Below are positions 17,365 to 63,187 of a stretch of 64,000 nt of DNA, piece after piece. Both the position numbers and the translations under genes were made by a program. How positions within the stretch are numbered: the first letter of the stretch is position 1; each line of letters starts with the position of its first letter. Location of the stretch: the NCBI RefSeq assembly GCF_021028975.2, contig NC_059434.1, forward strand, positions 70,494,001 through 70,558,000. Direction: 5' to 3'. The notes under the pieces were generated by a model. The model had not been told where the DNA came from. It did not search any database and worked only from the letters and a program-made list of their open reading frames with translations. Source of the DNA: Sphaerodactylus townsendi. Lineage: Eukaryota.

Positions 17365-17562
17365 AGCAGCATTCAGATGATCTCCTGATGTTTCCAGCCA
17401 CATGCATTTGTGGCTGGAACATGCCATTCAGATGATCCTCTGAAGATGCCAGCCACAGATGCAGGCGAAACGTCAGGAGAGAATGCTGCTAGAACACGGC
17501 CATACAGCCCGGAAACCACACAGCACCCAAGTGATTCCGGCCGTGAAAGCCTTCGACTATAC
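17365..17562 (+). mobile_element. Penelope-like element 3' terminal repeat with scrambled inverted 5' segment
   Basis: CCTCTGAAGATGCCAGCCACAGATGCAGGCGAAACGTCAGGAG ... GATTCCGGCCGTGAAAGCCTTCGAC. Upstream pieces TCTCCTGATGTTTC and TGCATTTGTGGCTGG are reverse complements of it. Confidence 0.75.
17436..17478 (+). ncRNA. Minimal type-I hammerhead ribozyme motif (Penelope-associated)
   Basis: Stem I TCCT/AGGA, core CTGAAGA (17440-17446), stem II GCC/GGC, GAAA (17467-17470), palindromic ACGT helix III, GTC cleavage triplet ending at 17474. Confidence 0.7.
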
Positions 17563-18236
17563 AGAAACTGCTCATATCAGAAGCAATATTTTGAAGAAAT
17601 TCCTTAAGCTAGTTTCTGCAAATGCAAACTTTAACTGGTAGAGGAATCAGAATTGACACTTTATTGTTTATTGCTCAAAACATACTAGAGCCAAAGTAGG
17701 CCCATAAAAGAACCGCATATACCAGTTAATCAACCAAAGCTAAATCCTACCAATACTAACTGTTAATTGTTAATTTAATTATTGAAGTCAATTGGTAATT
17801 AATAATTTAATCATTGAAGGCAAATTCTAATTGATTTGATTTACATACACACCTATATAACTGTAGTCATTTTTAAGTCTATATTTTTATTTATATGAAT
17901 TGTTGGTTAACTTTTTCATCTACATCTATGGGAAGGAAGATTTTCAGAAATTTCATCAGTTATGCAATGAAGATAAAAGCACCATCTTGTACATGTGGTG
18001 TTTGTGACTGCTTCTTTCAACCTTGCCAGTGTTTCAGACTGCACCAATTCACTCCAGGACTTAACGTGGGCAAGTACAGATAGGAAGGAAGTTGTTACTG
18101 CAGCTCCACAGGGAGAACTAACCCTGTCTTACGAAACTGTACTTGTGTTTAACGCTATACTGCTTCTTTATTTCAATGCCTAGTATTAATAACACAAGAA
18201 TAGCTACAACTCATCAACCACCATAAATATCTATAT

Positions 18237-31174: not shown

Positions 31175-31612
31175 TCTGTTATCAAAGGTTTTTTTATGAC
31201 TGAATCAGCTGGCTATTGTGGGTTTTTCAGGCTGTGTGACCGTGCTCTGGTAGTTTTTGCTCCTAACATTTCACCCATTTATATGGCTGGCATCTTCAGA
31301 AGGCATGTCACGGTGAGATGTGTTTCTCTCTGTGGCACTATGGAAACATATCTCACTAAGGCTCCTTCTGCACATGCAGAATAATGCACTTTCACTCCAC
31401 TTTCACAATTGTTTGCAAGTGGATTTTGCTATTCGGCACAGTAAAATCCAGCTTCAAAATGCATTGAAAGTGGATTGAAAGTGCATTATTCTGCATGTGC
31501 ACAAGGGGCCCATGACATGCCCCTAAAGATGCCAGCTATAGATGCAGGTAAAACATTAGGAGCAAAAACTACCAGAACATGGTCATGCAACCCAGAAAGC
31601 CCACAACAGCCC
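31175..31612 (-). mobile_element. Penelope-derived inverted-repeat (hairpin) element interrupted by a MITE
   Basis: Left arm 31210-31330 is the reverse complement of the right arm (31343-31357 plus 31511-31612). Both arms match the 17436 repeat including a decayed hammerhead core. Confidence 0.7.
31360..31510. mobile_element. Harbinger-type MITE, family A variant
   Basis: GCACATGCAGAATAATGCACTTTCA at both ends in inverted orientation, GGC...GCC termini. Confidence 0.8.
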
Positions 31613-43811: not shown

Positions 43812-44134
43812 CCGGGGCAGCATGGCATAGACCAATCTCAACAGATCTCAACCACCAAAGAAGATTTTGCAGAGGAAGGCAATGCCTTTTATGCCCCCAA
43901 ATTAAATGGAGTTAGAGGCTTGATGTGTAGTGTCATCCTAAGTAGGGTTATACCTTTTTAAGTCAGTTGAAATTAATTGGCTTAGATGTATGCTTAAGGT
44001 TACTGTGTTATAAGGTCAGAAAAAAACACTCTGTCTTGTGTCTGGGCAGAATTTTAGTGAACCCATTGCCTTGAAAGTTCCTTGCTGTGGTCACTGTAAG
44101 TCAGTTGCAATTTGATGGAACTTACATATATACA
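43812..44134 (+). mobile_element. 5S-derived SINE split by an inverted local duplication
   Basis: 5' half ends GCAGAGGAAGGCAATG (43884) and 3' half resumes TTGCCTTGAAAG (44066). Collinear with the neighbouring copy at 43575. Confidence 0.7.
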
Positions 44135-44146
44135 TTTGGGGGTGGG

Positions 44147-44444
44147 GGAGCAGCAGTGGCATAGGAGGTTAAGAGCTCGTGTATCTAATCTGGAAGAACT
44201 GGGTTTGATTCCCAGCTCTGCCACCTGAGCTGTGGAGGCTTATCTGGGGAATTCAGATTAGCCTGTACACTCCCACACACGCCAGCTGGGTGACCTTGGG
44301 CTAGTCACAGCTTCTCGGAGCTCTCTCAGCCCCATCTACCTCACAGGGTGTTTGTTGTGAGGGGGGAAGGGCAAGGAGATTGCAAGCCCCTTTGAGTCTC
44401 CTACAGGAGAGAAAAGGGGGATAGAAATCCAAACTCTTCTTCTT
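44147..44444 (+). mobile_element. tRNA-derived SINE (Squam3-like), young subfamily, full length
   Basis: A box TGGCATAGGAGG, B box GGTTTGATTCCC, (CTT)n tail. Confidence 0.88.
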
Positions 44445-44558
44445 ATCTTGCCTGCTTGGAATTGTCACAGCCTTGAGCCACAAGGCAGAAGTGGAGTATA
44501 AATATTTTAATACATAAATGAAATAAATAAACAATTTGATTTTCAAACTCCACAAAGA

Positions 44559-44831
44559 CCTTCACGGCCAGATTCAACTGGTTCTGGTGGGTTTTCCGAG
44601 CTGTGTGGCCGTGTTCTGGTGGATTTTGTTCCTAACGTTTCACCTGTATCACAGAGAAAAGTCTGTTTCATACTGTGTCTAAGTGAGAAGGGAAAGTTTA
44701 TACCACAATATACCACACTAAACTCTGTGATACACCTCTGAAGATGCCAGCCACAGATGCAGGTGAAATGTTAGGAAGAAAATCCACCAGACCACGGCCA
44801 CACAGCCCGGAAAACCCACCAGAACCAGCTG
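44559..44831 (-). mobile_element. 273-bp Penelope-derived inverted-repeat element
   Basis: Arms 44575-44656 and 44723-44831 are reverse complements. Hammerhead core CTGAAGA at 44738-44744. 9-bp TSD CCACAAAGA (44550-44558 and 44832-44840). Confidence 0.78.
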
Positions 44832-45852
44832 CCACAAAGAGATTAATCTGAACAGGACAAGACAGTGGGCACATTGCCACCACATTTGAATAACCTCTTT
44901 CTATTAACCATTTGGACACATCACTAGGAGACCAGTGTAAACAGCACATTATCTCAGCAAACACTGAACCACATACAACTGGGCTGTGAATTATGCCTAC
45001 TGCTTCTATACCACCCAGCAGCTGCAGTCTACAAACATAGATGTAAAGGAAAGCCTCTAAAATGTTTGCTGTACTGTCATTTTTGTATGTGCTTTGCTTT
45101 TGAATCAACTCCCTCACAAGTGTACAAACCTTTCAACAGTTTAAATCCAAAATACAAGCCTGTGTATGTTTTCCCATCTTCTTCCCATACCTTGAATTCA
45201 TATCTTTCTCGAGTACTTGGATAAAGATACAGTGTGAAATGCTCATGCATACACATTGCAGAAAATGAGCATAGTTGCGCTGCCATCTTTCTAGATCTGT
45301 TCCAGGAAAACACTTTAGCTACACACTTAACTTCAGATCAGGCATCCCAATGATGCTAAAAGGGTCTACTCTTAGTCCTTGACTTGATCAGGATGCAAAT
45401 AAATATATGGGTTCACTAAAATTCTGCCCAGACACAAGAACAGAGCGAGTTTTTCTGACCTTATAACACAGTAATCCTAAGCATACATCTCTAAGCCAAT
45501 TAATTTCAACTGACTTTAAAAGGTATAACCCTACTTAGGATGACACTACACATCAGGCTTCTAACTCCATTTAATTTGGGGACATAAAAGGCAGAACAAC
45601 AATTATCCCAACTTTTTATCACTATGTATTTTGTATTGTTACGATGAAATATTATCCCTGTAGTGGCTACGGATGAGATAGTGTTTCTGCTGTCTCTTTT
45701 TACTGTTTTTCACGGTTAGTTAAATATTGTTTTAGTGCCTAAGTTTTTATTATCAGATTTGACTTCTTTTTTTAGAGATAGTTTACTACAGCTTTGTACA
45801 TTTCAGAAGCAAGTAAAATGAATTTACCTGTTAGGAAGGTTAGTTTACAATT

Positions 45853-57826: not shown

Positions 57827-59340
57827 GGTGTCCAAGCAGAGTCCATTTGCAGTTGCATTTGAATGTCTCTGTTTTTGTTTTGGTGTTTTTTTAGTACCAG
57901 TAGTCAGGTTTTGTTGATTTTCAAGCTGACTTCCTTTTTGTTGAAACTGTCCTGGTGTTTTCAGATTTCAGTGGCTTCCTTGTACAGTCTGACATGGTAG
58001 CTGTTGGAGTGTCAAGAATGTCTATGTCTTCAAATAAGATCCTATGTCCAGATTAGTTTACAGCATGTTCTGCTAATGCTGGTTTCCCAAGTTGGATTGG
58101 TCACCAATGCCTTTCATGTTCACAAAGATGTTCATGTTCACTCCCTCCCCACCCAGGACACTGAGGTAATAAATGATAATTTCTAAACACTGCAACTTCA
58201 AAAATAAGTAACTTATCCTTAGTCTAGCCATCTCATAGGGCATGTGCAAAAGCAGAAAGGAAGATTTGTGGTTATATCACTTTTTGTTTGATCCTTGTTC
58301 AGTTTGCTGAGTAAATAGACCATGGGGCACACTTTGATTACTTCATTAAAATTCTTTTTAATTTAATTGCTGGTAGCCTGATCTAATTCAATCATGCTTA
58401 TCTGGCAGAAAGGCCAGGGGTGGCTATAGATCTCTTCATCTCCACAGTATGCAAGTGTGCATGCTAGTCCTCCTCATAGTAGTTGGTGAGTATGAAGTGA
58501 GACACAAGGCAAAGATGAGAAGCCCTTAAATGGCACTGTGGTAGGCAGTTCTGAAATGGTGGTCCTGCTGCAGAAAATATTCCTTAAGTTTGCAAAGTTG
58601 CAGCCAAAATACCCAGAAAGAACTAAGTATCATGTGAGTAAGGGAAACGTGGGTCGCGAGCATTATTTTTCCCATATTTGGAAAGAGGTGAATGTTTATT
58701 TTATGTGTTGCTTATTCATACAATTCCTACCACCAAATAGATGGACAGCAGAAATAAAATCAAAGTCTCTAGGTTGACCAAAAGCCCCTACTGAACAATA
58801 CCATCGTTATATCATGTTCTGACAGATAAATGGTTTTATTAGCACAAATGTGTGAAATATCTGCCATCTAACATTCCCTTGAGCTATCACCTTTCTGCAA
58901 GGTGCAAGGGAAGTGAGCAAAGTATGTATTTCATTGTTAAGGATCTTATTTCTTGAGCATTCGCCGTCTTACAAGCTATGGTACAATTAATGTAAAACTT
59001 TAAGTAGCACATTCTTAACCTTTGCTAAGCACAAGAAAAACATAGGAAAATGATTGTTGCCAGATGAATTTGACCCATTTGATGCACTTGAATATCAGCA
59101 ACTCACAGTGCAGAAAAACTAGAGGCAATATGGACAGTGTGAAGGTTCAAACTAGAAAAGGGGGAAATATTCTAGTAGTCAGAAATAATGGCACCAGAGC
59201 CTTGCAGAAGTCTTTGATACTCTGATATAGTGTCCTAAGAATGGGGTGAAAGCTAAACTTCGGATTCCTTCTAGGACAAAAGGGTTTCAGAAATATAGTA
59301 AGTGGCAGTCAATCAATTTGCATACACTACCATAAGATAA

Positions 59341-59517
59341 ATGTGAGGGTGATCTGGCTGAAATCTGTCACCCCAATGATCACTAGGGTTGATACAGCTG
59401 ACCTGGCTGGCATCCCTCTCAAAACTGTGCACTTGGTGAAAGAGGACAACCATCCCTGATAGGAGTGTATTATTCTTCAATCAAATTACACAGCTCCCCT
59501 GCAAGTATCTCCAGAAA
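59341..59517 (+). pseudogene. RN7SK: 7SK snRNA pseudogene, internally deleted and 3'-truncated
   Basis: ATGTGAGGGTGATCTGGCTG..ATCTGTCACCCCAATGATCACTAGGGTTGAT..GCTGACCTGGCTGGC, then AGAGGACAACCATCCCTGATAG ... GCTCCCCTGC..CTCCA, match the recalled vertebrate 7SK sequence with CpG decay. Confidence 0.85.
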
Positions 59518-59521
59518 CTTA

Positions 59522-59662
59522 GGCCCCTTTCGCACACGCAAAATAATGTGTTTTCAAACCACTTTCACAACTGTTTGCAAGTGGATTTTGCTATTCTGCA
59601 CAGCTTCAAAGAGCACTGAAAGTAGTTTGAAAGTGCATTATTCTGCATGTGCGGAATGAGCC
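59522..59662. mobile_element. Harbinger-type MITE family A
   Basis: Same ~140-bp sequence, TSD TTA/TTA. Confidence 0.87.
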
Positions 59663-62969: not shown

Positions 62970-63187
62970 GCCCTGATCTGGATGGCCCAGGCTAGCCTGA
63001 TCTCATCAGATCTCAGAAGCTAAACAGAGTGGGCCCTGGTAAGTACTTGGATGGGAGACCACCGAGGAATACCAAGGTTGCTATACAGAGGAAGGCAATG
63101 GCAAACCTCCTCTGAATGTCTCTTGCCATGAAAACTCTACTTGGTTGCCAAAAGTCAGTTGCAGTTTGATGGCACTTTACACACACG
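62970..63187 (+). mobile_element. 5S rRNA-derived SINE, best-preserved copy
   Basis: GCCTGATCTCATCAGATCTCAGAAGCTAAACAG..GGGCCCTGGTAAGTACTTGGATGGGAGACC..GGAATACC (5S A box, IE, C box) plus a GGCAATGGCAAACC tail ending (AC)n. Confidence 0.85.

Follow-up and report, generated by a model that had tools for sequence, protein, structure and literature searches.

The inserted unit and its target site

The window analysed here is a 64,000-nucleotide stretch of the Sphaerodactylus townsendi genome, and the feature of interest is a unit inserted at 44548-44840. Inverted arms at 44575-44650 and 44756-44831 (76 nt, 92% complementary) and a second inverted pair at 44645-44665 and 44714-44734 (21 nt, 81%) give a hairpin fold of -149.9 kcal/mol (z -17), a stability equalled by 0 of 200 shuffles, and the sequence CCACAAAGA flanks both inverted arms at 44550-58 and 44832-40. 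A sequence-only reading had proposed a hairpin of two inverted Penelope arms; the complementarity, the fold and the flanking repeats show it to be real.

Element positions are counted from the A of the parent ORF start codon (0 = window 44744). From left to right, the unit begins with one copy of the target-site duplication (TSD; 44548..44558, + strand), which has 11 of 12 nt, one G being missing in the assembly. The left arm (44559..44700, - strand) is an antisense copy of the element 3' end from +103 to -65, as placed by blastn against a long copy, L096, and by a 22-locus alignment. It alone carries a partial 'tail' (44559..44577, - strand; +103 to +85, 19 nt), the full family tail being about 34 nt (+85 to +118) and reaching about +118. 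The junction patch (44701..44722, + strand) consists of a 6-nt repeat and sense element sequence from -77 (44707-44724, to about -60/-62), and can equally be read as the right arm extending beyond a 38-nt internal deletion. The right arm (44723..44828, + strand) is a sense copy of the element 3' end without a tail, from -21 to +84, and includes the ORF start codon at 44744. The full 12-bp right TSD copy (44829..44840, + strand), placed from the sequence and an empty site, closes the unit. The supposed unique spacer of about 65 bp is thus element sequence throughout when aligned to L096, and the two arms are not symmetric, the part-tail being on the left arm only. The left-arm deletion of about 27 bp was read correctly: 27 nt are absent between 44644 and 44645, removing the CTGAAGA half of the hammerhead. 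So was the lack of coding capacity: apart from the opening 28 codons of the parent ORF, the unit has no intact reading frame. Of 235 sites scored, 7 depart from the family majority in this copy, close to the family mean of 3.6%.

The right arm carries a putative minimal type I hammerhead motif (44735..44775, + strand), with stem I CCT/AGG, CTGAAGA at 44738-44, GAAA at 44765-68 and a predicted cut after 44772. The motif claimed for the + strand is therefore present but not canonical, having C>T substitutions at +20 (stem II) and +25 (stem III) that give GAAATGTT. The Rfam hammerhead family was not among 16 matches at E<=1, the isolated motif folds with z 0.66, and by a strict pattern neither strand of the 44548-44840 unit has an intact core.

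The TSD had been put at 9 bp. The duplication stands, since CCACAAAGA is on both sides, but its length is 12 bp, CTGCCACAAAGA (44829-40), of which the left copy (44548-58) lacks one G. Contigs from four public sequencing runs were compared with the region. In organism C, one contig in one run (run X5, record 17) joins 44444-44547 directly to 44829-44922. This is the empty orthologous site expected in a relative if the unit inserted in one piece, and it holds a single CTGCCACAAAGA, from which the 12-bp length follows. Organism B contigs span both outer junctions, and one retains the G that is absent from the left TSD copy. Flank divergence is about 3% from organism C and 10 of 599 letters from organism B. 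With the site empty in C and the junctions occupied in B, on single contigs each, the insertion is likely to be younger than the split from organism C and older than that from organism B.

The hairpin unit and a SINE-like piece are enclosed by inverted arms of about 184 bp (43883-44066 and 45407-45593; 90-100% complementary, 1340 nt apart), possibly a larger inverted-repeat element or a local inversion. Elsewhere in the window, a second Poseidon-like family, by eye nearer Poseidon_Ac, is represented by its 3' end at 17437-17563 (+), which has a full tail, a GUC hammerhead and a patchwork 5' junction. At about 31178-31604 lies another head-to-head unit, older and from a related subfamily that matches the reference at about 77%, interrupted by a short MITE-looking insertion with inverted ends, and 57886-58121 (-) is an endonuclease-region fragment 74% identical to a long copy. 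At 59347-59604 and 62978-63089 (+) Rfam gives 7SK-like and 5S-like matches that are degenerate but exceed the gathering score; they are probably pseudogenes or SINE heads.

The parent element and its sampled relatives

A genome search with the hairpin unit returned 3491 candidates, of which 40 were scored. Locus L058 has an identical layout and a TSD, and its sense arm runs out to -679, into the putative endonuclease region, and encodes a C-terminus resembling GIY-YIG. Upstream walking gave seven long copies, all with broken ORFs, so that no intact full-length copy was found among the seven. In L096 a reverse transcriptase domain is recognizable (PF00078, E 1.7e-10, L096:3874-4911), and this copy terminates in the same terminal repeat and tail, 95% identical to the right arm. 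Translations of the endonuclease region show Cys/His residues and a GVY...YIG motif, suggestive of a GIY-YIG endonuclease; Pfam gave only T5orf172, at E 0.016 and 0.044, below the cut-off. The start of the parent ORF lies in hammerhead stem II, and over the first 38 codons it aligns without gaps to Poseidon_Ac, 19 being identical in a by-eye comparison. A pLTR with a minimal type I hammerhead and an ORF starting in stem II is likewise the layout in the accessible text of PMC11167929. These sequence comparisons support the view that the hairpin is one insertion, truncated at its 5' end, of a Penelope-like element with kinship to Poseidon_Ac.

How constant is the arrangement across the family? 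The 1.8-Gb genome holds 3503 exact matches of a 29-mer, and 779 and 252 of two 34-mer tail variants. Tail-selected set 1 consisted of the first 100 of the 779 exact matches to the tail pattern and set 2 of the first 100 of the 252 matches to the variant. The first 70 of the 3503 matches formed a tail-blind sample, reduced to 69 by dropping one that was another's partner arm; six overlap earlier loci. A head-to-head second arm without a tail was present at 69/100 loci in set 1 and 73/100 in set 2 (142/200 together); a tailed sense piece took the place of the tailless arm at three loci in set 1 and none in set 2, and the remainder had one arm within 1.5 kb. The median unit is 252 bp in set 1 and 246 bp in set 2. 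TSDs of at least 9 bp flank 51/69 and 56/73 units respectively (107/142, mode 12), against 4 of 4692 shuffled flank pairs (set 1 only). In the tail-blind sample 38 of 69 loci were two-armed, and 37 of these 38 have the tail on exactly one arm, none being tailless; the other was scored as having two tails, with arms 1.07 kb apart and no TSD.

Outer arm ends fall at +108..+118 for tailed arms, which were selected to be at least 108, and at +80..+89 for tailless ones. Sequence around the TSD end (n=102) favours A-A-A 16-14 nt before it (57, 66 and 55%) and G-T-T-T just after it (43, 61, 61 and 55%), making the target roughly two-fold symmetric around a 12-13-nt core. The junction between the arms could be scored in 131 of 142 units: 44 show overlap, 8 are blunt, 45 have 1-7 extra nt, 30 have 8-90 nt and 4 have longer inserts. 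At least 8 nt of element sequence is held by 18 of the 30 inserts of 8-90 nt, against 5.2 expected. Such overlaps and templated patches are what is expected of microhomology-mediated end-joining. Both arms belong to the same subfamily at 53 of the 59 loci callable for both, of 79. Arm lengths show a weak correlation, with rho 0.21 (p 0.08) and rho 0.24 (p 0.043).

Inner arm ends cluster 40-49 nt before the ATG in all three samples. In set 1, 31 of the 69 arms reaching -40..-49 end there, in a bin chosen after seeing the data; in set 2, with the bin fixed beforehand, 24 of 51 do so (background 131/1361, p 7e-12), and in the tail-blind sample 25 of 42. With subfamily-matched references the stop rate climbs from -20 to a maximum of 41/124 at -40..-44 and is down to 2/61 at -55..-59. 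The peak is not a subfamily artefact, since it persists in both subfamilies when tested with the reference and 21 long real arms. As evidence for a start site, the initiator-like TCACTT around -50 was set aside, because the second subfamily lacks it. Splicing around -40 was rejected: sequences beyond the -40..-49 ends differ between loci by eye, so that no upstream exon is seen. The copy at 44548-44840 extends beyond this zone, to -65 and -77.

Some sampled loci contain other DNA. Different MITE-like elements sit at one and the same terminal-repeat site (-48/-44), a TTA/TAA-type target, in at least three unlinked copies (L036, L058 and L210). In L051 (oriented 1586-2352) the arms are separated by about 770 bp that does not belong to the element and is bordered by a short repeated piece of it, and in L094 terminal repeats flank an ORF with foreign DNA in between. 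Either capture or later insertion could account for the foreign DNA in L051 and L094.

Origin of the head-to-head arms

The hairpin is very probably a single truncated Penelope-like insertion in which two element ends were joined head to head inside a 12-bp TSD, and twin priming is its likely origin. The endonuclease would nick both target strands 12-13 nt apart. Reverse transcription would be primed by one target 3' end at the end of the RNA tail (+103 to +118) and by the second near +84, after which the short cDNAs would be fused by host end-joining. We infer this order of events, and end-joining as the origin of the junction patches, from the finished insertions. That sister stumps carry the tail on exactly one arm suggests a separate RNA start site for each strand, the two cut DNA strands likely priming at different positions on the RNA. 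Twin priming would not be the sole outcome, or else partner arms have been lost or lie further away, because at 31 of the 69 loci in the tail-blind sample a second arm is missing within 1.5 kb. The weak correlation of arm lengths also counts against twin priming.

The available portion of PMC11167929 describes an Anolis enzyme, predicted to be a dimer, that in vitro cuts and extends both strands and uses two RNA start sites. These sites bound the tail of Poseidon_Ac, the outer one at 111-118, and the outer ends of the present family fit them. No difference in start site between the strands was seen in vitro (PMC11167929), a point against twin priming, but the molecules were pooled, so those data are not a direct test of it.

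What sets the inner ends? The ramp-then-cliff stop profile fits slightly trimmed run-off products from a possible 5' end of the RNA; a reverse transcriptase pause, or the near-palindrome at -44..-36, are alternatives. The Drosophila Penelope pLTR contains an internal promoter (PMC2377424). Whether many of the stumps are run-off copies of an RNA 5' leader ending near -45 we regard as evenly balanced. We lean somewhat against, and put forward tentatively, a more specific scheme in which a dimeric enzyme at a symmetric site, with a 12-13-nt stagger and start sites strictly one per strand, primes on the 5' terminal-repeat copy, so that both cDNAs run off near -45 (a 'strong-stop') and are end-joined into a hairpin. 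If this scheme were true, the stumps would record a missing step of Penelope integration, and the family's insertions would mostly derive from the leader of the mRNA and not from its 3' end.

An inverted arm could also come from single priming followed by fold-back or self-priming, with an extended DNA or antisense-RNA hairpin yielding the second arm. Palindromes at inverted junctions of rotifer Penelope elements are taken as self-priming on an antisense template in the accessible text of PMC3846280, and near-perfect palindromic junctions occur here in L099 and L127. Self-priming, however, predicts a second arm that never reaches further 5' than the first, whereas here either arm can be far the longer (L058, +19/-679; L149, +66/-261; L134, -173/+23), which is why it fits less well than twin priming. 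It also predicts matching ends, but in 37 of the 38 two-armed tail-blind loci the second arm ends at about +84 and not at the tail end. We consider it improbable.

The origin preferred in the sequence-only reading, a non-autonomous, ribozyme-processed mini-element, taken here as a fixed fold-back RNA that ribozymes process on each strand and the Penelope enzyme copies whole, is very unlikely. Units are indeed short (124 of the 142 two-armed ones are at most 350 bp) with constant outer ends and TSDs, and there are unlinked pairs with near-identical junctions (L052/L156, L142/L181, L218/L257, L099/L190, L204/L254). Against this, the 44-nt junction of the hairpin has one match in the 1.8-Gb genome at up to 2 mismatches, in place of the many copies with a shared junction that a fixed unit should have, and 22 distinct best look-alikes agree at their outer ends and all differ in their centres. 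When 138 junction strings were compared with 200 loci, that of the hairpin matched none, and the 14 near-matches involved a few pairs. None of the 142 two-armed relatives has breakpoints near those of the 44548-44840 copy, and the largest group with similar breakpoints has 4 of 142 members, with differing junction letters. A recurring joint that also occurs mirrored (L153/L240) points to microhomology. The only pair sharing a long junction patch, L223 and L224 (C3, 85 kb apart), also shares flanks and TSD and is one insertion carried by a segmental duplication. The unique junction and locus-specific breakpoints instead support the other origin that the same reading had offered, an extremely truncated Penelope insertion. 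Many dispersed copies with one internal structure, as a MITE-like amplified element would have, were likewise not found, the junction being unique and the largest cluster 4/142, and this candidate was rejected. Locus pairs with matching breakpoints slightly exceed permutation (exact, 4 vs 1.35, with 7 of 200 permutations reaching 4; +-1, 15 vs 10.2, and +-2, 32 vs 25, each reached by 19/200), so whole hairpins may on rare occasions have been re-mobilised.

By the strict pattern only 4 of 200 loci retain intact cores in the two arms; arm ends are not enriched around the ribozyme cut, +24..+33 (9/131 and 9/130, about background); and no ADAR-type one-strand A>G scar was found in the 194 loci scored of 200+1. 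The Anolis relative, Poseidon_Ac, inserts in vitro without ribozyme cleavage, according to the available text of PMC11167929. The ribozyme would appear to be a passenger in these insertions.

It is hardly credible that a long insertion with inverted pLTRs on both sides lost its middle and left this unit behind: the 44548-44840 copy has one internal deletion of 27 nt and possibly another of 38 nt, and microhomology deletions are reported in Penelope copies in the accessible part of PMC3846280, but such a loss leaves both the recurrent -40..-49 stop zone on both arms and the templated junction patches unexplained.

Comparison with known systems

Poseidon_Ac of Anolis carolinensis (Penelope/Poseidon clade), as described in the accessible text of PMC11167929, resembles the present family in having an ORF that starts in hammerhead stem II, a reverse transcriptase followed by GIY-YIG, the latter putative in the present family, and a tail between two reverse transcription start sites that ends about 111-118 nt into the ORF. 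The cleavage triplet of Poseidon_Ac is GUC, whereas the majority of the family here has GUU, which marks a distinct family. That text was found to mention neither inverted insertions nor a rule of one tail per insertion.

The family here resembles EN+ Penelope-like elements such as Pen2a_Av in having a reverse transcriptase domain, a one-sided tail and an inverted 5'-truncated copy with a TSD. In the available portions of PMC3846280, PMC8557442 and PMC2377424 the published units likewise combine a head-to-head inverted 5'-truncated copy with frequent 5' truncation, a 30-40-bp tail at one end only and a TSD of about 8-10 bp, an arrangement reported there from rotifer and fly Penelope-like elements, among others. 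The hairpin is accordingly not the undescribed system suggested at first, its layout being already published in PMC3846280 and PMC8557442. Compared with the published units, both arms are truncated here, the coding region is gone and TSDs are most often 12 bp long; in the accessible text of these three sources no preferred stop zone at -40..-49 was found.

Non-LTR retrozymes, to judge from the parts available of PMC7229834 and bioRxiv 10.64898/2026.07.22.740005, are like the hairpin in being small, non-coding, related to Penelope pLTRs and equipped with a type I hammerhead. They are direct tandem repeats with at least two ribozymes on the same strand, whereas the hairpin is inverted, with its ribozymes on opposite strands, one of them damaged and the other deleted. 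With inverted arms and no intact core on either strand, it was rejected as a retrozyme. The hairpin is not a self-spreading ribozyme element; it is a one-off shortened insertion of a known kind of retrotransposon, in itself ordinary dead retrotransposon DNA. Penelope stumps of this sort can mimic MITEs, miRNA hairpins or retrozymes, and caution is needed in annotating them.

In the twin priming of L1, the element RNA is primed by both target strands, the result is an inversion whose junction is end-joined, and the two cDNAs cover different parts of the RNA. In the present family, in contrast, both cDNAs start at fixed sites within about 35 nt of each other, and the same sequence is copied twice. 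Our literature search found no twin-priming reading of Penelope inverted units, and the available text of PMC8557442 names the formation of Penelope inverted repeats and of the one-sided tail as an open question. The one-tail rule (37/38), the stop zone at -40..-49, the symmetry of the target and its 12-13-bp stagger turn this question into concrete predictions for the in vitro Poseidon system.
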